A stretch of 24,000 nucleotides of DNA, taken from positions 63,890 to 87,889 of the forward strand of contig NZ_JAGIKV010000015.1 of NCBI RefSeq assembly GCF_017874615.1. Direction: 5' to 3'. The notes beneath the pieces are model-generated. The model was not told where the DNA came from. It worked only from the letters and a program-made list of their open reading frames with translations, and did no database searches. Made by a program: the position numbers and the translations under genes. Position 1 is the stretch's first letter, and each line of letters starts with the position of its first letter. This document shows, in pieces, positions 3,824-12,938 of the stretch. The stretch is from Paenibacillus xylanexedens. GTDB taxonomy: Bacteria; Bacillota; Bacilli; Paenibacillales; Paenibacillaceae.

Positions 3824-5593
3824 CTAGCCCAAATCCGGTGTATCCACGAACGTTACCGCCAGATCATCCGTCTGATGAAGCTGGAATACGATGATTTCAT
3901 TCTCACCTTCATGAAGGAGCGGAGCAGGTACATACAGTGTTTTTTGCGGTCCTTTATTCCAGTAGCGACCCAGATTGAATCCGTTTACAAAAACAACCCC
4001 CTTGGTCCAGTTATCCAGTCGCAGAAAAGTATCTCTTACATCCGTGATATTAAACTCTCCTCGATAAAATGCTGGTCCCTGTACTTCATTAATTGCTTCG
4101 CTAATCACATTACTAAATTGCAAACCCGACAGATCAGTTAATGGCAGACAATGAATCGTCCAATCATATAAAAATTGAAAGCCATGTCGCACACCCTCGG
4201 TGATGCCCTTCGGATCTCTCAGGTACGGACCATAGTTGATTCGCCCCATATTTTCAACAAGGATCAATAGATCTGCGCCCTCAGGCGGCACTGCAAAGGA
4301 AACCGATAATGCCGTATTCCCCCGTTCCAGCACGCCCTGAAATTGCCCATCAACAAACACAAGCGCACGGTCACGAACCTCCTGAACCACCAGTTCCTGT
4401 CGCTCCCTGGGTCCGGATATTCGGGTCTGATAACAAATAAATCCATAATCCTGACCCAGCTTCTCCATCGTTTCCGGATTCGTACGCTGCACCGGGGCTG
4501 ATATCCGGTCCAACTGCGCCAGTAATGGCGCCTGCTGGTTCAACTCCACTCGCCCATAGCCCATAGTCCCCTTCGATTCTGGCAGCACAAGCTCACCCAG
4601 ATTTACCTCGCTATACCGAGCAATAAGATCACGTACGGTATGGAATTTCGCTGTCGGCTCCCCAGATTCACTGAGCAGTGAATCGTAGTCGTAACTTGTA
4701 ATTGTGGGTTCGTATTGATCCTTCTGTTGACAGTTCGCCCCGTTGTAAAATGCAAAGTTTGTTCCACCGTGGAACATATAAAAGTTAACCGAAGCTCCTG
4801 CTCGAAGCATCTCTTCAAACACACCAGCCACATCTGCGGCTTCCCGGGTATGATGCGACTCACCCCAGTGGTCGAACCAGCCGTTCCAATACTCCATGCA
4901 CATCAAAGGTTCATCCGCCTGATATTCACGCAGCTTGGCGAACGCTCCCTCCGTACCTGATCCAAAATTGACCGTAGCCAGATGCCCCGGCACCGATCCC
5001 GCTTGCAGCATGTGGTCTGTCGGTCCGTCCGAGGTAAATAACAACACATCCATACCGCGTTCTACCATGCCATCACGTAAATATTGCAGGTAACTCGCGT
5101 CGTTCCCGAAGCTGCCGTACTCATTTTCAATTTGTATTGCAATGATCGGTCCGCCATGGGTACTAAGAAGGGGTTTTAATTTGGGCAAAAGCACATCATA
5201 ATAACGATCCACATTCGCCAGAAATTTTGCATCATTACACCGCAGACGAATTTCATCATCGGCAAGCAGCCAGGCAGGTAATCCGCCAAACTCCCACTCG
5301 GCACATATATAAGGACTTGGGCGAACAATCACATGCAGACCCACATCTCCCGCAATGCGAATAAAACGTTCCAGATCAGCCATGCCTTCAAAACAATACT
5401 GCCCCGGCTGCGGCTCATGAACATTCCATGGCACATACGTCTCCACCGTATTGAAACCGCAGGCTTTCAGCTTAAGTAACCGATCCTCCCAATAGTCGGG
5501 GACCACTCTGAAATAATGGATGGCACCCGACAAAATCCGAATGGGCTCACCATCATACATAAATTGTGAACCTTTATACGTCAGCACCGCCAT
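3824..5593 (-). CDS. beta-galactosidase, GH35 family
   Basis: 589-aa ORF with the GH35 hallmarks GAIHYFRV, FNTVETYVPWNVHEP and QIENEYGS (acid/base Glu). A GGGGAGGG RBS is embedded in the end of the upstream gene. The start is 1 nt from the GH29 stop. Confidence 0.95.
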   Translation of the reverse strand: MAVLTYKGSQFMYDGEPIRILSGAIHYFRVVPDYWEDRLLKLKACGFNTVETYVPWNVHEPQPGQYCFEGMADLERFIRIAGDVGLHVIVRPSPYICAEWEFGGLPAWLLADDEIRLRCNDAKFLANVDRYYDVLLPKLKPLLSTHGGPIIAIQIENEYGSFGNDASYLQYLRDGMVERGMDVLLFTSDGPTDHMLQAGSVPGHLATVNFGSGTEGAFAKLREYQADEPLMCMEYWNGWFDHWGESHHTREAADVAGVFEEMLRAGASVNFYMFHGGTNFAFYNGANCQQKDQYEPTITSYDYDSLLSESGEPTAKFHTVRDLIARYSEVNLGELVLPESKGTMGYGRVELNQQAPLLAQLDRISAPVQRTNPETMEKLGQDYGFICYQTRISGPRERQELVVQEVRDRALVFVDGQFQGVLERGNTALSVSFAVPPEGADLLILVENMGRINYGPYLRDPKGITEGVRHGFQFLYDWTIHCLPLTDLSGLQFSNVISEAINEVQGPAFYRGEFNITDVRDTFLRLDNWTKGVVFVNGFNLGRYWNKGPQKTLYVPAPLLHEGENEIIVFQLHQTDDLAVTFVDTPDLG

Positions 5594-7085: not shown

Positions 7086-7850
7086 CTATATCATTGGACC
7101 ACCCTTGCTTGGACCACTACTCAGTGCACTACTGTCCATGAATGGCTGTGATGCAAGCAATAACTGCTGCTTGGCTTCTTCAACCAAATGTGGATCAATG
7201 GGATAATTAAAGCTGCCTTTGTACCTCACGCCTGATCCCATATGGATTTCCGTGATACCCGTCTGACTCACTAGCGTTTGAATTCCCTCTATTGTGACCC
7301 CCGACCCTGCCATGACAGCGATGTTCAAGGTTTGCCCCAGTTCATGAAGCTGTTTCAGTTCCAATATGGCTTCAGGCGCTGTCTGTTTCCCTCCTGATGT
7401 AAGCACACGCTCCACGTTGCCCAATGTGTTAATGGCCTTGAGCGCCTCAGTCAGACTAATGCTCACATCAATTGCACGATGAAACGTAACGCCCAAACCC
7501 TGAGCTTCGGCCATACATGATTGCAAGGATAGGAGGTCCACTTCACCATCTCCCGTGAGGGCGCCGATCACGATGCCATCGACTCCAAGTTCCCTCGCCA
7601 CGCTTATATCCCGAGTCATCGCGCGGATATCATCTGTGCTATAGCGGAACGAGCGGCTATGGGGACGAATCATGACATACACCGGGATGGATACTTGGGA
7701 CACCACATGCTCCATGACGCCATAACTGGGAGTAAGCCCCCCTTCGGACATCGCAGACACCAGTTCAATCCGATCTGCCCCTCCCTCTTCAGCTGCTAGG
7801 GCATCTGCCGCATCCACAGCAATGACTTCCAATACAGGCTGTCTCTTCAT
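7086..7850 (-). CDS. cutC: CutC family protein (copper homeostasis protein CutC; TIM barrel)
   Basis: 254-aa ORF with LEVIAVDAADALAAEEGGADRIELVSAMSEGGLTPS, MIRPHSRSFRYS and FHRAIDV, all typical of CutC. AAGGGAG RBS. Confidence 0.9.
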   Translation of the reverse strand: MKRQPVLEVIAVDAADALAAEEGGADRIELVSAMSEGGLTPSYGVMEHVVSQVSIPVYVMIRPHSRSFRYSTDDIRAMTRDISVARELGVDGIVIGALTGDGEVDLLSLQSCMAEAQGLGVTFHRAIDVSISLTEALKAINTLGNVERVLTSGGKQTAPEAILELKQLHELGQTLNIAVMAGSGVTIEGIQTLVSQTGITEIHMGSGVRYKGSFNYPIDPHLVEEAKQQLLLASQPFMDSSALSSGPSKGGPMI

Positions 7851-7892: not shown

Positions 7893-8084
7893 TTAACCCG
7901 TATCGATACACATCTCTCGAACTGCACACGGCCTAATCCATGACATAAAGGACCGACTGAACGCTTCATCAGCGCTCCTGCGGTCCTTCTTCATCATTAT
8001 TTGACGATGGTCAGCTTCCAGATTGCAATCTGCAAAGGCTGGCCGTCCTGAAACGATATATGATTTGTCGGCAATGATCTTCAT
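7893..8084 (-). CDS. hypothetical small protein (63 aa)
   Basis: The track ORF is 7893..8135. The internal ATG (rc of 8082-8084; MKIIADKSYIVSG...) is preceded by AAAGGAG at 9-nt spacing, whereas the longer start has no RBS. No family was recognised. Confidence 0.4.
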   Translation of the reverse strand: MKIIADKSYIVSGRPAFADCNLEADHRQIMMKKDRRSADEAFSRSFMSWIRPCAVREMCIDTG

Positions 8085-8238
8085 GATTGGATTCTCCTTT
8101 GGGGACCGGAATGGGCTAGCAAATAGAGAGCGCAACGGACATCATATACTTTGTTTGATGAGTTTTGTTATTTTTGTTATTTATAGTGTTATTATTTATT
8201 AGCAATAGTCTAAAACGTTAGGATCAGAACGTCAATAC

Positions 8239-8264
8239 AAAAAAAGACACCCGGAGGGTGTCTT
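8239..8264 (-). terminator. Rho-independent terminator after the small membrane-protein gene
   Basis: On the minus strand the sequence reads AGACACCC-TCCG-GGGTGTCT followed by TTTTTTT. Confidence 0.8.
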
Positions 8265-8301
8265 CATGTCTTGGATAACCTTCTGGTTATCCGAGCTTTT
8301 T

Positions 8302-8517
8302 CTATTTTCTACGCCGAGCCTTCGTCATTCGATTAAACATAATCAGTGCAGCAATAATCATGGCTATCATGGCAATATTACTCGCCACTTCTTGTGATAA
8401 TCCGAAAAGAACTCCCAGGTTAGTCACCAGGCCTCTTACAATCAGCGCCACCACAACCAGCAGGATTGGACTCAAAAAATTATAATTTCTCATTCCTCGC
8501 AACACCCCTGACCCCAT
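8302..8517 (-). CDS. small hydrophobic protein with two predicted TM helices (start codon uncertain)
   Basis: 71-aa ORF with two hydrophobic stretches (FLSPILLVVVALIVRGLVTNLGVLFGL and IAMIAMIIAALIMF) and a basic tail (KARRRK). A strong terminator follows. No convincing RBS exists for any candidate start. Confidence 0.55.
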   Translation of the reverse strand: MGSGVLRGMRNYNFLSPILLVVVALIVRGLVTNLGVLFGLSQEVASNIAMIAMIIAALIMFNRMTKARRRK

Positions 8518-8573
8518 TGTTCAGAACTACGAATCTCATAACACTATCATAACAGTAGCTATTCCGTGTTACA

Positions 8574-8604: not shown

Positions 8605-8682
8605 CATATACCAACGTATTCTGCTTTGGATGACAGAACAACCTTTCGATTGCTCTTATCACCTGATATTTCCGATTATCTT

Positions 8683-11466
8683 CTACACCTGTTTGAATTC
8701 GATCCAGTCAATCTGGAGACCTGGTTTGGTGAAGTCCAGTTTCAATTCATACAGTCCTGCTTCAAGATCTACTTTGACAAGTTTCTGTCTGATCCATTTG
8801 CCTTCTGTACCATTCGTTTGGATGGTGGTCACCAACTGATCATTCAGGAGCAGGTTACATGCACTTTGAGCCAGTTCCGGCTCAGGGGACATGATCTGTA
8901 CGATAATCCGGTAATGGCCGGCCTGATCCACTTTCATATAGACGGGTTCAGCTACCGCAGGTTTCACCTGTGCGTTCTCAACCAGATCCTGAGCTTGTGC
9001 AGCAGATAGGGATGCATTCGCTTGGAACGAAGCGACGTTCTCCACGATCTCGTGTTTTCTGCCGGACACTGGTGCATTCATGATGAACTTGCAGATGTTA
9101 ATCGCGGAACGTTGCAGTTCTCCGCGCGTAAGTGTTCCATTTTCCAAGGATTCAATCGTGTTGTCGTCCCAGCCATTGATCTCTGCGCCGTAGTTCGGTA
9201 CAACCATGTAGAGATCATTCTGCGCACGAATCATCCAGTTGGTGTATTTGCGATCAGCCTCGCCACCTTCGGTCACATCATTCATAATCGCCCACCAGTC
9301 GGTCATTACGATTCCGTCGAAATTCCATTCGCCACGCAAAATCGTGGTGTTCAGGTCGTAGTTGGATGCCGCCCAGTGTCCGTTAACCGGGTTGTAAGAA
9401 GTCATGATGGAGTTGGCTCCGCCTTCTTTTACAGCGATTTCGAACCCTTTCAGGTAAATTTCACGCAGTGCACGTTCGGAGACAACAGCATCTACTTTAC
9501 TGCGGTGCTTCTCCTGGTTGTTGCAGGCAAAGTGTTTCAGTGTGGCATTGGAACCACCCTTCATGATACCTTTCGTACATGCTGCGGCAAATACACCCGA
9601 GATCAGTGGATCTTCAGAGAAGTACTCAAAGTTCCGGCCATTGAGCGGGCTCCGGCGGATATTGAGTCCAGGTCCGAGCAGGGTATCCACCTGATTTCTC
9701 AGCAATTCCTGTCCTTCCATCACATACAACTCTTCAACAAGATCCTTGTTCCATGTCGCCGCAAGCAACGTACCAATGGATACCTGTGTTGCTTTCTCGC
9801 CACTATCCATACGAATACCGGACGGGCCATCTGCCGTACATGCTACCGGAATACCGTAGTTAAACAGGCTGTCGCTGACACCACCAAATGCAGATGCCGT
9901 TCCCGAAGTAACGAGCGGACTGCTCATGCCTTCACCACGGACAATCGCCGCCAGATCCTGATCACTCAGTTGAGCGATGAAGGTTTCCAGACTCACTTTG
10001 CCAGCCTTAACGTCACTCAGCTTGTAGCCCTGATTACCCGTCTGCTCCAGCGTTTGCGGGAGATTCTGCTCAATCCGGTTCGCCATGGATATCTTACGTT
10101 TCGGTACTTCTGCATAAGTCAGTTCATAAGATCCATCTTCCTTGCGCGAACCTGGTTTCATCCGTGTAAAATCTTCAGTTGGGGCCATCGCTTCTTGCAG
10201 TTGCTCCACTAATTGAAGGGATTCAATCACATATCCATCCTGGCCATCAATGCTGATATGCTCCACTTGTTTCACACTGGTTCCTACATGCAGTCGGTAT
10301 GTGCCTTCTTCCAGAACATATGCGGAAGCATGACCTGTAACACCGGCATCATCGTAAGATGCCATGGCATGAATCGGGAAGCTGATCGTCAGAATTTCTG
10401 ACTCACCCGGCTGCAACAATCCTGTTTTACCAAAAGCCACCAACGCCTTCGCCGGTTGTCCCAGTTTGCCTTGTGGTGCTTCATAATAAACTTGCACAAC
10501 CTCTTTGCCCGCATATGTTGTACCTGAGTTGGTCACATTTACACGAACTTCGATGTAGGTTTCGCCGTCTTTGGACACTGATTTTGCTTCTTCGTGTTGA
10601 GCCAAAAACGTCGTATAAGACAGGCCGTAACCGAATTCAAACTGAACGCGCTCAGGTCGAAACGTTTCGAAATAACGATAACCTACATAGATATCTTCCT
10701 GATACAGGTTCTTGAACTCATTGCCGTAGTTGCTTGTCGAAGGGTAATCTTCAATGGAATAAGCAATCGTATCTGTCAGTTTACCGCTTGGTGTAACGTC
10801 CCCCGCCAGCACATCGGCAATCGCATTACCACCCTCCATACCGCCATGCCAGGAGTAAATTACACCTTGGATTGGATGTAGATACGTTTCGTTTAACCAG
10901 CTCATGTCGATGATATTTGAGACATTCAACACAACGATTGTGTGTTCAAATTGCGAAGTAACTTGCTTCAACATCGCTTTCTCATCTTCTGTCAGTTGGT
11001 AACTTCCTGGCGCATCCGCATTATCCTGGTCTTCTCCTGCTGTACGTCCAATCACGATAATGGCTTTGCTGGATTTGCTTCTGGCCTGTGCAACCAGTTC
11101 ATCCGTCAAAGGCATTTCTTTCTGATTCCATGGCTCGGCCGCCCATACTTTTCCGCCATCATCAAATGGATTTTCTTCAATCCACTTCTCATAGACAGCT
11201 GCCAGTTCTTCATTCACCGTTATATTCTTTTTGCTTCGCAGACCATCCAATAGATTCGTTGTGTAGGCCACATGTACACTACCGCCTGAACCCGTGCCGC
11301 TCCGATAATAATTGACTTGAATCCGTCCAAAAACTGAAACGTTTTCGTTTTCACGAAGTGGAAGCACTTGGCCTTCATTTCTGAGTAAAACGGCTCCTTC
11401 AGCGGCAACCGTACGACTAAACTCTGCAAACCCTTCCAATGGAACTCCGATTTGATGTGTGCTCAA
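8683..11466 (-). CDS. GH3 family beta-glucosidase/beta-xylosidase-like enzyme with permuted domain order and a C-terminal CBM-like domain
   Basis: 927 aa with a TTG start (rc of 11464-11466) 6 nt after GGAGGG. The N-terminal half carries GH3 C-domain motifs (AVLLRNEGQVLPL, IVIGRTAGEDQD, GYGLSYTTF) and an Fn3-like segment. The catalytic (beta/alpha)8 motifs come second (GPGLNIRRSPLNGRNFEYFSEDP, KHFACNNQE, VMTDW). The tail ends ...LQIDWIEFKQV. Confidence 0.92.
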   Translation of the reverse strand: MSTHQIGVPLEGFAEFSRTVAAEGAVLLRNEGQVLPLRENENVSVFGRIQVNYYRSGTGSGGSVHVAYTTNLLDGLRSKKNITVNEELAAVYEKWIEENPFDDGGKVWAAEPWNQKEMPLTDELVAQARSKSSKAIIVIGRTAGEDQDNADAPGSYQLTEDEKAMLKQVTSQFEHTIVVLNVSNIIDMSWLNETYLHPIQGVIYSWHGGMEGGNAIADVLAGDVTPSGKLTDTIAYSIEDYPSTSNYGNEFKNLYQEDIYVGYRYFETFRPERVQFEFGYGLSYTTFLAQHEEAKSVSKDGETYIEVRVNVTNSGTTYAGKEVVQVYYEAPQGKLGQPAKALVAFGKTGLLQPGESEILTISFPIHAMASYDDAGVTGHASAYVLEEGTYRLHVGTSVKQVEHISIDGQDGYVIESLQLVEQLQEAMAPTEDFTRMKPGSRKEDGSYELTYAEVPKRKISMANRIEQNLPQTLEQTGNQGYKLSDVKAGKVSLETFIAQLSDQDLAAIVRGEGMSSPLVTSGTASAFGGVSDSLFNYGIPVACTADGPSGIRMDSGEKATQVSIGTLLAATWNKDLVEELYVMEGQELLRNQVDTLLGPGLNIRRSPLNGRNFEYFSEDPLISGVFAAACTKGIMKGGSNATLKHFACNNQEKHRSKVDAVVSERALREIYLKGFEIAVKEGGANSIMTSYNPVNGHWAASNYDLNTTILRGEWNFDGIVMTDWWAIMNDVTEGGEADRKYTNWMIRAQNDLYMVVPNYGAEINGWDDNTIESLENGTLTRGELQRSAINICKFIMNAPVSGRKHEIVENVASFQANASLSAAQAQDLVENAQVKPAVAEPVYMKVDQAGHYRIIVQIMSPEPELAQSACNLLLNDQLVTTIQTNGTEGKWIRQKLVKVDLEAGLYELKLDFTKPGLQIDWIEFKQV

Positions 11467-11801
11467 TGATTTCCCTCCTGATTGTCATCCCCATATCTAC
11501 GAATCGCTATATATAAAATGAACTAACCAAGCGCACACTCATTTTATAAAAAGAGATTCTATGATCTGGTAGATTCACTTGTACATAGTCTCATATTAAC
11601 AGATTCTATAGAAGAAATTAAATTAGATTTGTGCTTTTGAGAAGAAATTACCCTAACGTCAAAAGTTGCAGACACAATTACGCCGTTCCACGATGTAAGA
11701 ACACGCTCATTCAATCAATTATTCGTTAAGAATACAATGATTCAAGGATAATATTTAGGGAATTATTTCCGATAAACGTATGGATAATATCTCTCATTTT
11801 G

Positions 11802-11829
11802 TTGAACTAAAAGGCTTTTGTGGTATACT
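11802..11829 (+). promoter_or_regulatory. sigmaA-type promoter with extended -10
   Basis: TTGAAC (11802-11807), a 16-nt spacer whose last three bases are TGG (extended -10 TGn), then TATACT (11824-11829). It lies just upstream of the tandem repeat units. Confidence 0.6.
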
Positions 11830-11842
11830 AGTGATATCAACA

Positions 11843-12060
11843 AATTTGGAGCGTACTGTGCTCACCAGGGTTGCAACCCTTGGTTCCACTCCGCAGTGGA
11901 CTTTAAATAAGATGCGGAATAGAGTAATTAGTTGCATAACACACGGTAATACGGAATATACTATATTTGGACCCTTAGGGTCACTGGGGAAGGCGACCCC
12001 TAGTTCCACTCCGCGGTGGACTTTAAATAAGACGCGGAACAGAGCTTTTAGTCGCCACCA
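11843..12060 (+). ncRNA. Two tandem ~120-nt structured repeat units (candidate non-coding RNA; possible RNA antitoxin or cis-regulatory leader)
   Basis: The conserved cores are 11862-11935 and 11981-12055, with TTCCAC at 11884 and 12004 (period 120). Each core has hairpin P1 (CCAGGG..CCCTTGG versus CTGGGG..CCCCTAG) and hairpin P2 (TCCAC-TCCGCR-GTGGA). Each P2 loop is complementary to a downstream hexamer (TCCGCA/TGCGGA and TCCGCG/CGCGGA). Substitutions between the units are compensatory. Confidence 0.6.
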
Positions 12061-12074
12061 TATTATAATTGTGA

Positions 12075-12107
12075 AGGCGCTGGTTCTATCTACCTAGCGT
12101 CTTTTTT
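12075..12107 (+). terminator. Modest intrinsic terminator between the repeat RNA and the downstream CDS
   Basis: AGGCGCTGG - 10-nt loop - CTAGCGTCT forms 9 bp including two G-U pairs, followed by a T6 run (12102-12107). Confidence 0.5.
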
Positions 12108-12139
12108 AGTTTGTAAATAGAAACTGTGAGGGAACCTAT

Positions 12140-12817
12140 ATGCTCGAAAGGATATCACATGTCCACGACTTAAACTCACTAGATGTAAAACCAAGAATAG
12201 ATCAGATTAACCTAAAATTGCTCCTCGACTACTACATAAGCTATCTATTACCATATCGATTTACATACCACTTGGGAGACGGCTCCGTACTTCACTTAGA
12301 TTTTAACAAAGAAAACTTTTGTCATCTTGTAGGCTTACAAAGTATTGTCAATAAAACTTTGAAGGAACGCGCAGCTTCAAAATATAAGGGCATGCCAGGT
12401 TTCAATGGTGTTATGAACGGTATAATTACGTTTGAAGATTTAAAAAAGAAAAACAAGGGTGGATTCAATAGTGTAAAAAGTAAATTAGTTAATTTCCATC
12501 TCATTCCCAAGCTACTTATGTCTTCAACACAAGTCGTTTACTACACTCAACCTGTTAATAGTATTAATTGTGCCCTATTAATATTTGATGTGTATCACAA
12601 TGCTTACATCCATCTTGGAATAGATAAAATAGTGGAAGGAACATATGTAGCAAGAACGTTTCTTATCGAACCGATAACACAAAAAAATTCGGGCACTACG
12701 TTCATTGATGGTCAAAAAGGACCCATACCCATTGTTAAGACCTTAAAAATGTTAAGACCCGATACACAAGTAGCCTCTACTGCTATCAACATCTCTGAAT
12801 CATCAGATAACTATTAA
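12140..12817 (+). CDS. hypothetical 225-aa protein; tentative BECR-fold (PBECR4-like) nuclease or toxin candidate
   Basis: GAGGGA RBS (12128-12133) lies 6 nt before the ATG. The ORF is AT-rich. Motifs include DFNKENFCHLVGL and NAYIHLGI. No signal peptide or TM segment is apparent. The family assignment comes from memory of an F-x-HL-x-G motif in PBECR-type proteins and is unverified. Confidence 0.75.
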   Translation: MLERISHVHDLNSLDVKPRIDQINLKLLLDYYISYLLPYRFTYHLGDGSVLHLDFNKENFCHLVGLQSIVNKTLKERAASKYKGMPGFNGVMNGIITFEDLKKKNKGGFNSVKSKLVNFHLIPKLLMSSTQVVYYTQPVNSINCALLIFDVYHNAYIHLGIDKIVEGTYVARTFLIEPITQKNSGTTFIDGQKGPIPIVKTLKMLRPDTQVASTAINISESSDNY

Positions 12818-12847
12818 TGGTGTCTCATCTGGAATCGATTTCAGGTA

Positions 12848-12904
12848 CAAACTAAATAACCGTTCTCCGGTATACTACTGGAAAACGGTTATTTAGTTTG
12901 TTTT
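12848..12904 (+). terminator. Strong intrinsic terminator (long hairpin plus T-run)
   Basis: CAAACTAAATAACCGTT (12848-12864) is perfectly complementary to AACGGTTATTTAGTTTG (12884-12900). The stem extends inward, and TTTT follows at 12901-12904. Confidence 0.8.
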
Positions 12905-12938
12905 GCTACCTAGAAGGCTATAGAATTCCTTTGATATA

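Follow-up and report, generated by a model that had tools for sequence, protein, structure and literature searches.

A candidate type III-like toxin–antitoxin family that would pair a predicted double-pseudoknot RNA with PBECR4 nucleases

What might a bacterium gain from placing a structured RNA and a terminator between a promoter and the gene for a predicted nuclease? The question is raised by a locus in a 24-kb window of Paenibacillus chromosome (the whole stretch of DNA that we analysed; coordinates given without a locus name are window positions), in which a sigma-A type promoter is followed by two copies of a structured RNA, an intrinsic terminator and an open reading frame (ORF) for a protein of 225 amino acids (aa) that belongs to the Pfam family PBECR4. 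Our answer, read from sequence and held with moderate confidence, is that the locus probably represents a new type III-like toxin–antitoxin or abortive-infection family, in which an RNA antitoxin would be matched with a PBECR4 RNase. The observations that carry this answer are the covariation of the RNA, its linkage to PBECR4 genes across chromosomes, plasmids and viral contigs, the terminator that stands between RNA and gene, and the existence of RNA copies from which the gene is missing. The features of the locus, with lengths in nucleotides (nt) and predicted folding free energies (dG), are as follows.

11802–11829, + strand: sigma-A type promoter, with −35 TTGAAC at 11802–11807, a 16-nt spacer ending TGg, and −10 TATACT at 11824–11829.
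11849–11863, + strand: small 5′ hairpin GAGCG-UACUG-UGCUC that abuts unit 1; dG −5.1 kcal/mol, not significant alone.
11860–11939, + strand: RNA unit 1, predicted double pseudoknot; covariance-model match of 55 bits, E = 1e-12. Helices P0 11864–11870/11878–11884, P1 11873–11877/11931–11935 and P2 11885–11889/11896–11900; A-rich linker L3 11901–11912; PK2 11890–11895/11913–11918.
11940–11978, + strand: inter-unit linker, with a partial copy of the PK2b–linker segment at 11949–11963, similar to 11912–11926.
11970–11982, + strand: small hairpin GACCC-UUA-GGGUC, dG −7.2 kcal/mol, with its 5′ arm and loop (11970–11977) in the linker and its 3′ arm entering unit 2.
11979–12059, + strand: RNA unit 2, predicted double pseudoknot; covariance-model match of 43 bits, E = 2e-9. 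Helices P0 11983–11989/11998–12004, P1 11992–11997/12051–12056 and P2 12005–12009/12016–12020; L3 12021–12032; PK2 12010–12015/12033–12038.
12073–12108, + strand: intrinsic terminator between RNA and ORF, a hairpin at 12073–12104 plus a U-tract; dG −15.8 kcal/mol, z = −3.7.
12128–12132, + strand: ribosome-binding site (RBS) GAGGG, 7 nt before the ATG at 12140 and invariant in the Paenibacillus alignment.
12140–12817, + strand: PBECR4-family ORF (Pfam PF18813), 225 aa, putative toxin.
12842–12905, apparently serving both strands: strong terminator, a 64-nt perfect hairpin; dG −33.9 kcal/mol, z = −9.1.

This layout agrees with the original prediction, which had named an extended −10 promoter at 11802–11829, a modest terminator, an RBS with a 225-aa ORF at 12140–12817, and a strong terminator; each is present, and the promoter is conserved in Paenibacillus. 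The simple terminator scan missed the hairpin at 12073–12104 because of its bulge and 7-nt loop.

A side-by-side reading of the two window units yields four helices. P0 is a hairpin (ACCAGGG/CCTTGGT in unit 1) whose loop, GCAAC, pairs with the unit's 3′ end, GTTGC, to form the first pseudoknot, P1; in the other hairpin, P2 (TCCAC/GTGGA), the loop TCCGCA pairs with TGCGGA beyond the 12-nt A-rich L3 (CTTTAAATAAGA) to form the second pseudoknot, PK2. Each unit is thus predicted to fold as a double pseudoknot of about 76 nt, with the P2/PK2 pseudoknot nested inside the P0/P1 one. P2 and L3 are identical in the two units, and compensatory differences separate unit 2 from unit 1 in P0 (C-G to T-A), in P1 (GCAAC/GTTGC to GCGAC/GTCGC) and in PK2 (A-T to G-C). 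The units start 120 nt apart and share a common core of 63 nt at 84% identity (11873–11935 and 11993–12055); of the two tandem repeats of about 120 nt first proposed, the spacing therefore stands, whereas the fold shrinks to a structured unit of about 76–80 nt. Tandem Repeats Finder made no repeat call, since similarity is confined to about half of each 120-nt period. The P2/PK2 half recalls H-type pseudoknots, such as those of the preQ1-I riboswitch and of frameshifting sites, in its compactness, 5-bp stem, fully paired loop and 10–12-nt A/U-rich linker, but it differs from them in being nested in a second pseudoknot (P0/P1), in preceding a nuclease gene rather than a metabolic gene, and in having no Rfam match. 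A 105-aa ORF with a repeated peptide (11780–12097, + strand) also runs across the RNA units; we judged it non-coding because it begins 5′ of the promoter, would lose its frame through one-base indels in P. vandeheii, and lies where the variation is compensatory for the RNA helices.

Comparison among loci bears this fold out. From 27 units of related loci we built a covariance model, R1, that contains the nested helices P0 and P2 only. Within the window it matches 11860–11939 and 11979–12059 and nothing else; over 393,794 bases, searched on both strands, all matches with E < 1e-6 lie directly 5′ of a PBECR4 gene and on the strand of that gene. Covariation was counted on an R1-made alignment of 42 units, to which P1 and PK2 were added as pseudoknots. 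Standard pairing fills 89.4% of cells, against 33–50% when the partners are slid by 1–3 columns; changes on both sides occur in 13 of 23 pairs, and none of 500 shuffles reaches the observed covariation. The best-supported helices are P1 and PK2, the two that are absent from R1: P1 shows double changes in 6 of 7 pairs (GCAAC/GTTGC, GCAGC/GCTGC, GTAGC/GCTAC and ACAAC/GTTGT, among others), and PK2 is 99.4% paired, with three of four pairs covarying (CTGC/GCAG, CGGC/GCCG, CGTC/GACG, CCGCA/TGCGG). Scores for P0 and P2 are artificially low because the Paenibacillus rows are one column out of register there. Between species, the RNA region retains 85% identity, as against 49% in adjacent intergenic DNA. 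Searches of Rfam 15 returned no match to the motif in the window at the gathering threshold, and none in 11700–12250 even at E ≤ 10; at E ≤ 1, no family overlapped it in 11 related loci. The repeats thus correspond to no riboswitch or leader family in Rfam, a possibility that the original prediction had raised, and they constitute a structured, covarying RNA that is new to that database.

The RNA is closely tied to the gene. R1 matches 89 of the 102 PBECR4 loci that have at least 150 nt of upstream DNA, so that homologues of the protein are indeed preceded by related RNA, as the original prediction would lead one to expect. When upstream DNA was clustered at 90% identity into 33 distinct types, R1 matched 23 of these clusters, and the motif is visible by eye in all 33. 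A metagenomic homologue only 38% identical to the window protein is preceded by one motif copy, then a terminator-like hairpin and an RBS; among plasmids, tblastn found 16 records with PBECR4, 15 of them from Bacillales, and in all 12 plasmid loci examined, a structured leader with its promoter and a terminator-like hairpin come before the gene. A further 6 viral and 80 metagenomic loci came from profile scans for which 12 protein sequences were aligned. The loci sit on Bacillota chromosomes, plasmids and viral contigs, and the genes are tied to mobile elements—plasmids, viral contigs and, in the window, a low-GC chromosomal islet—while isolated phage genomes (INPHARED) gave neither the PBECR4 protein nor the RNA at the sensitivity used. 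Neighbouring genes vary from locus to locus (GH3/LtrA, hypothetical/3′-5′ exonuclease, HTH/ArsM, USP/AAA ATPase, RNA ligase, integrase/relaxase), which indicates that there is no conserved protein partner.

The remaining 13 of the 102 loci are divergent, and those analysed further suggest the same architecture where sequence similarity is absent (10 tested, 7 significant). R1 misses 10 divergent clusters, which are plasmid subfamilies, even with filters off, and a looser pseudoknot descriptor produced many false positives in AT-rich DNA; the latter was superseded by the covariance model and by a shuffle-controlled descriptor of the same four-helix topology, run against 200 dinucleotide shuffles for each locus. 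At the expected place, 7 of 10 divergent loci beat at least 196 of 200 shuffles. The number of shuffles that equalled or exceeded the observed value was 0 for L015, L016, L020, L021 and L026, 2 for L013 and 4 for L018; it was 17 for L022, 59 for L019 and 78 for L011, which are not significant. Helix and L3 sequences in the significant loci are wholly different, suggesting that protein subfamilies differ in RNA sequence but retain the fold.

The number of units also varies. The Paenibacillus chromosomal loci have two full units, as do B. cereus and B. mycoides plasmids, a Paenibacillus plasmid and 3 metagenomic loci; 3 loci have a "mini-unit" (P2/PK2 alone) followed by a full unit; and all others have a single unit, often with a small hairpin before it. 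Such a hairpin is seen by eye in several loci besides the window. Tandem repetition, which the original prediction had treated as a defining trait, therefore does not extend to the family. In two-unit loci, P1 differs between the units (unit 1 has GTAGC/GCTAC in the Bacillus plasmids and in 2 metagenomic loci, where unit 2 has GCARC), which implies that the duplication is old; distinct P1 helices would also stop mispairing between units.

A further PBECR4 subfamily, divergent and of phage origin, lies after an endolysin gene in L112 (4744–4995; also L165, 1750–2030, − strand), with its own promoter and a different leader. The leader of this type holds a direct repeat of about 84 nt, with CAACGAAAAGATATTTTAACTGGATATCACG at 4837–4867 and 4921–4951; about 100 nt upstream of that there is a P2/PK2 mini-pseudoknot and also a terminator. 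The L112-type protein matches Pfam PBECR4 at E = 9e-26.

The protein itself fits the role of a toxin. It scores 59.8 bits against PBECR4—"phage-Barnase-EndoU-ColicinE5/D-RelE like nuclease 4"—where the cut-off is 27 (E = 5.9e-16), and its homologues receive the same Pfam assignment; this places in a family what the original prediction had called an orphan protein. The earlier impression that it is unlike ToxN/AbiQ was sound, in that PBECR4 is its sole Pfam match and PADLOC reports no ToxN match. An exhaustive HMMER search gave 194 representatives of the family, most of which stand alone and are about 200 aa long. Iyer et al. 2017 (PMC5512222) describe PBECR domains of polyvalent proteins as predicted metal-independent endoRNases whose His-based active site comprises a conserved His in an N-terminal helix together with a C-terminal Thr/Ser, and report solo versions in phages and mobile elements. 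Our proteins share with these the Pfam family, the conserved His and the solo form, but that description (PMC5512222) mentions no RNA partner, leader or toxin–antitoxin-like layout, whereas the solo proteins of about 200 aa found here always occur with the RNA. His62, in a F-C-H-L-x-G motif, is invariant in an alignment of 55 sequences and lies in a predicted helix (57–64) of an AlphaFold2 model with a mean confidence (pLDDT) of 95.2; in a 12-sequence subset, F60, C61, H62, L63, G65, G160, F174 and Q192 are invariant and H158 nearly so. The invariant His62 and near-invariant His158 fit the His-based active site of PBECR domains (PMC5512222). At T173, in an R-T-F segment, Thr is common by eye, and this position is absent from the listed invariant and near-invariant columns. 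Sequence and profile searches of the PDB with the protein gave no match. Its family makes the 225-aa protein a predicted metal-independent endoribonuclease of the BECR fold, which strengthens the toxin reading. Our literature search, from which one 2026 bioRxiv preprint was missing that deals with BECR classification and mentions PBECR, found no paper tying PBECR4 or BECR toxins to an RNA partner.

If the RNA were an antidote and the protein a poison, one would expect to find the RNA alone but not the protein alone, and the distribution of the two shows this asymmetry: RNA-only loci exist, and no clear protein-only case was found among the loci examined. Searching IMG/VR with the P2-L3-PK2 core pattern gave 78 viral loci, of which 22 have a PBECR4 ORF 60–370 nt downstream on the same strand and 56 have none anywhere in the DNA examined. 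Because a hidden Markov model (HMM) of the close clade missed L112-type PBECR4, these gene calls rest on Pfam and jackhmmer too. R1 scores about 38 of the 78 copies as full units (60–88 bits), the rest being mini-units or variants with divergent P0/P1. One synteny—motif, convergent helix-turn-helix gene, serine recombinase—accounts for 27 of the 56 orphans, and 8 orphans lie inside or beside same-strand tRNA genes. In L119, whose contig encodes a large terminase, a unit stands between tRNA-Ser(GCU) and tRNA-Ser(UGA) in an eight-tRNA array, and in L118 a unit lies 58 nt ahead of tRNA-Cys. On the 206-kb viral contig of L145, a GOLLD RNA (RF02032, 152.8 bits) and four tRNAs (8072–8545 and 8611–9205, + strand) follow the motif (7434–7500, + strand) at a distance of about 600 nt. 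An RtcB-type ligase (PHROG E = 7e-131), three tRNAs and an orphan full unit share one strand in L110 (1568–2767, 5268–6371 and 9727–9802, all −). RtcB joins the 2′,3′-cyclic-phosphate and 5′-OH ends that metal-independent RNases make, and the L110 set looks like an RNA-repair or anti-RNase toolkit. Outside viruses, B. cereus plasmid pJ62_2 (L187, 1950–2110) retains promoter, terminator and a single unit, whereas the PBECR4 gene of the related pJ7_3 is missing from it: an RNA-only remnant or "orphan antitoxin".

Viral contigs with an antitoxin-like RNA and no toxin gene bring to mind the pseudo-ToxI of phage PhiTE, a phage-encoded antitoxin mimic that Blower and colleagues are said to have described in 2012, although here the function would have to be deduced from context, and the copies sit in tRNA arrays or next to recombinase modules on contigs of uncultured viruses. 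Taken furthest, the observations would allow a widespread family of double-pseudoknot antitoxins that restrains PBECR4 toxins across the plasmids, prophages and chromosomes of Bacillota and has been captured by gut phages as a counter-measure, deployed from tRNA arrays with spare tRNAs and, in at least one contig, RtcB; we offer this extension only tentatively.

The same settings could be explained by an intrinsic function of the RNA, as a new self-cleaving ribozyme or as a processing or stability element, with the link to PBECR4 following from a shared life on mobile elements. The compact pseudoknot and the near-invariant junction nucleotides would suit such a function, as would the copies that lie near a GOLLD RNA or within the tRNA arrays of phages, small ribozymes being found clustered in phage DNA and beside tRNAs in a like manner. 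There is also a superficial likeness to what we take to be the pistol consensus, namely a loop-pseudoknot hairpin, a UUAAAUA linker and a GUUGC/GCAAC helix. Pistol-like and hepatitis delta virus (HDV)-like ribozyme topologies were rejected, since the helix order, as read from the sequence, differs and Rfam gives no match. More generally, no Rfam ribozyme family is found even at E ≤ 10, the L3 and helix sequences are not conserved in divergent subfamilies as a catalytic core would be, and the RNA keeps to a strict position, in that 89 of 102 loci have it directly 5′ of one protein family with a terminator after it. We therefore regard an intrinsic function as improbable.

The toxin–antitoxin reading gains from comparison with known systems. 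Like ToxIN, CptIN and TenpIN, the locus has one promoter, an RNA region, a rho-independent terminator and an endoribonuclease gene (predicted in our case) in the same orientation; the RNA is pseudoknotted and, in the window, tandem, and the loci occupy plasmids, prophages and chromosomes. Unlike in those systems, the putative toxin is a BECR-fold PBECR4 protein rather than ToxN/AbiQ (Kid/MazF-like), the RNA unit is a double pseudoknot of about 76 nt in a 120-nt period rather than one of a series of near-identical 34–45-nt repeats, and there are two units in the window and one in many homologues. The module, whose protein belongs to Pfam PBECR4, would follow type III logic yet lies outside the ToxIN, CptIN and TenpIN families, because toxin fold and repeat size and number both fail to agree. 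The order of promoter, RNA repeats, terminator and RNase-like protein in the original prediction is real.

The closest experimentally studied analogue is AbiF/RCd22 of C. difficile (10.1101/2025.04.15.648962), whose non-coding RNA carries two motif copies, is made from the toxin's own promoter and is ended by a terminator. RCd22 has been shown experimentally to repress the toxin in cis by premature termination and to neutralise it in trans by direct binding (10.1101/2025.04.15.648962). The likeness extends to the sigma-A promoter, the two copies of a structured motif, a terminator that stops most transcripts (as we would expect it to do here), an RNase gene (AbiF being toxic, ours predicted to be) and, for some phage and prophage genes, a position just after endolysin, as in the L112-type loci. 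AbiF (Abi_2) is nonetheless of the HEPN fold rather than BECR, and its RNA motif (RF03085) measures 36–37 nt rather than about 76 nt, with no match of the abiF model here.

How expression of the gene is controlled bears on the choice between readings. The promoter scan found 9 of 12 consensus matches plus an upstream TG (an extended −10, TGgTATACT), and shuffled sequence yields as many such sites as the real region. The promoter is credible instead because it is conserved beside poorly conserved DNA: the TTG of the −35 and the entire TGGTATACT are unchanged across 5 aligned Paenibacillus loci, while the intergenic DNA immediately 5′ of the promoter is 49% identical between the window and P. 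vandeheii. Comparable promoters lie just 5′ of the RNA motif in other loci. Downstream, a terminator-like hairpin stands between RNA and RBS in the homologous loci that we read by eye; an automatic terminator finder gave clean results in most representatives and mispicked in about 10. In the 15 representatives with a correctly delineated stem, folding of the whole leader (nested only, so that pseudoknots are ignored) gave the terminator stem a probability of 0.75–0.98, and pairing of its 5′ arm with upstream sequence a probability of at most 0.05. No conserved antiterminator was found by leader folding. The window is an exception, in that the terminator 5′ arm (GAAGGCGCTGG) is similar to unit 2 in its P1a region (GAAGGCGAC) and the 3′ arm and U-tract are complementary to L3/PK2b; this alternative pairing is not conserved in P. 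vandeheii, where the terminator dominates the fold. Overall, the modelled terminator looks like a constitutive, fixed attenuator of read-through, as in ToxIN and AbiF/RCd22.

We also noted that the apical stem of the terminator is semi-conserved (YTCTGR/YCAGAR, for example GCTCTGAT/ATCAGAGC) in L012, L013, L023, L029, L031, L053 and L092. This conservation spans very divergent loci and is above what is usual for terminators; it could reflect shared leader ancestry or a recognition site.

Such an arrangement might instead belong to a leader that acts purely in cis, as an attenuator or in the manner of a riboswitch; it would respond to a small molecule, or to the PBECR4 protein, and set read-through, with no neutralisation in trans. 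Promoter, structured RNA, terminator, RBS and gene follow one another in every locus, the L3 junction nucleotides are highly conserved in the main clade, and the terminator arms of the window can pair with unit 2 instead; moreover, RCd22 acts in cis too, so that some cis component is likely in any case. On the other hand, the terminator is predicted to form without competing upstream pairing in the 15 loci, the alternative in the window is not kept in P. vandeheii, and what the motif accompanies is a single protein family, not a metabolic regulon. L3 and the helices vary among protein subfamilies while the fold is kept, which is unlike a ligand-binding core, and no Rfam riboswitch matches. The gene-less viral copies (56 of 78) argue further against the riboswitch alternative that the original prediction had allowed, some of them standing before a convergent gene or in tRNA arrays. 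A leader with cis action alone thus seems to us rather unlikely, if less so than an intrinsic RNA function.

On the toxin–antitoxin reading, a single sigma-A promoter would drive the two double-pseudoknot units, most transcripts would end at the intrinsic terminator and leave structured RNA in excess, and occasional read-through would supply the PBECR4 nuclease, whose substrate could be tRNA or mRNA. The RNA would bind the nuclease and hold it inactive, probably through a surface made up of the conserved pyrimidine/purine P2 helix, the A-rich linker and PK2. Were transcription to stop or the RNA to be degraded, as in phage infection or on loss of the element, the presumably more stable protein would be freed to cleave cellular RNA, and growth arrest, abortive infection or post-segregational killing could follow. 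Viral RNAs that lack the gene, including those in tRNA arrays, might then serve as antitoxin mimics or immunity RNAs.

The obligate link between RNA and protein could also mean a different partnership, in which the RNA is a cofactor, guide, activator or preferred substrate of the protein, or PBECR4 is a non-toxic enzyme that matures the RNA; the route proposed from AbiF to Cas13 would be a parallel. RNA-targeted roles for PBECR domains, such as attack on CRISPR RNAs, were considered by Iyer et al. (PMC5512222), and descent of guide RNAs from the AbiF non-coding RNA has been discussed (10.1101/2025.04.15.648962). Yet stoichiometric guidance is harder to square than sequestration with a terminator that keeps protein scarce relative to RNA. 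No segment of the RNA varies in the manner of a spacer, and the RNA occurs on its own where protein-only loci are not seen, a pattern that an antidote would produce. We give this partnership little weight.

Several points weigh against the toxin–antitoxin reading that we prefer. The P2-L3-PK2 core is near-invariant in the main clade, though the proteins there are just 35–40% identical to the window protein; such constancy is unusual where an antitoxin co-evolves, an intrinsic RNA function could account for it as well, and an antitoxin RNA with such a core would have to touch a very conserved surface of the protein, for example the active site. With a single unit in many homologues, the toxin need not process repeats in the way known from ToxIN. 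In the window, the capacity of the terminator arms to pair with unit 2 splits the predicted ensemble. The shared synteny of 27 of the 56 orphans means that these derive from few lineages, and to see the gene-less viral copies as antitoxin mimics or immunity RNAs is conjecture. Finally, PADLOC and NCBIfam make no defence or toxin–antitoxin call for the 225-aa protein, and the protein sample, having been gathered by means of an FCHL[LV]G motif, is skewed to one clade.

The surroundings of the module are in keeping with an acquired element. The PBECR4 ORF has a GC content of 34.8%, as against 45–48% in the flanking genes, which suggests horizontal acquisition. The nearest loci are those of Paenibacillus sp. 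LS1, PAMC 26794, ClWae2A and P. vandeheii, and the synteny common to the nearest Paenibacillus loci is GH3, module, LtrA, glyoxalase, DUF896 and Band_7. The strong terminator at 12842–12905 lies between convergent genes, PBECR4 (+) and the LtrA-family gene (−), and is placed so that it would terminate transcription in both directions. Elsewhere in the window, 574–897 holds a 170-nt unit repeated 1.9 times (78% matches), apparently non-coding, with internal GC-rich hairpin-like segments and no Rfam match at the gathering threshold.

Other loci have neighbours of their own. On the "Salmonella" plasmid pSD853_7.9, whose gene content (MobV relaxase, DUF3967, PBECR4) looks Firmicutes-like, a Bacillus-plasmid RNA (RF01691, 59.5 bits; L021, 1121–1174, − strand) lies about 100 nt upstream of the PBECR4 leader. 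Brevibacillus laterosporus plasmids carry a LigD/RNA ligase family gene directly 3′ of PBECR4 on the same strand (L016, 3302–4162; L017, 3317–4159), which may be an RNA-repair partner of PBECR4, and L016 also has a sub-threshold BsrG match about 650 nt upstream of PBECR4 (RF01412; 1591–1855, + strand; 36.7 bits against a gathering threshold of 55, E = 3.6e-5) that may be a type I toxin–antitoxin relative on the same plasmid. In one metagenomic lineage, a 41-aa ORF begins 24 nt 3′ of PBECR4 (L006, 3669–3794; L007, 766–891) and is followed by a 705-aa protein that has no Pfam match; the window has no counterpart of either.

The classical type III families are all ToxN-like, and if our reading is true, these loci would add both a new toxin fold (BECR/PBECR4) and a larger RNA architecture to type III-like systems. 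Solo PBECR4 proteins, so far annotated only as "domain-containing proteins", gain a concrete and testable biology, and a covarying RNA absent from Rfam can be modelled and searched for right away. The copies of this RNA in phage tRNA arrays bear on why phages carry tRNA clusters and on how RNase-based defences are evaded. The broader picture, should the tentative extension to phages hold as well, would be an arms race of RNA against RNase, in which a toxin fold new to type III systems would be set against phages, and in which phages would in turn contend with abortive infection that cleaves tRNA or mRNA.

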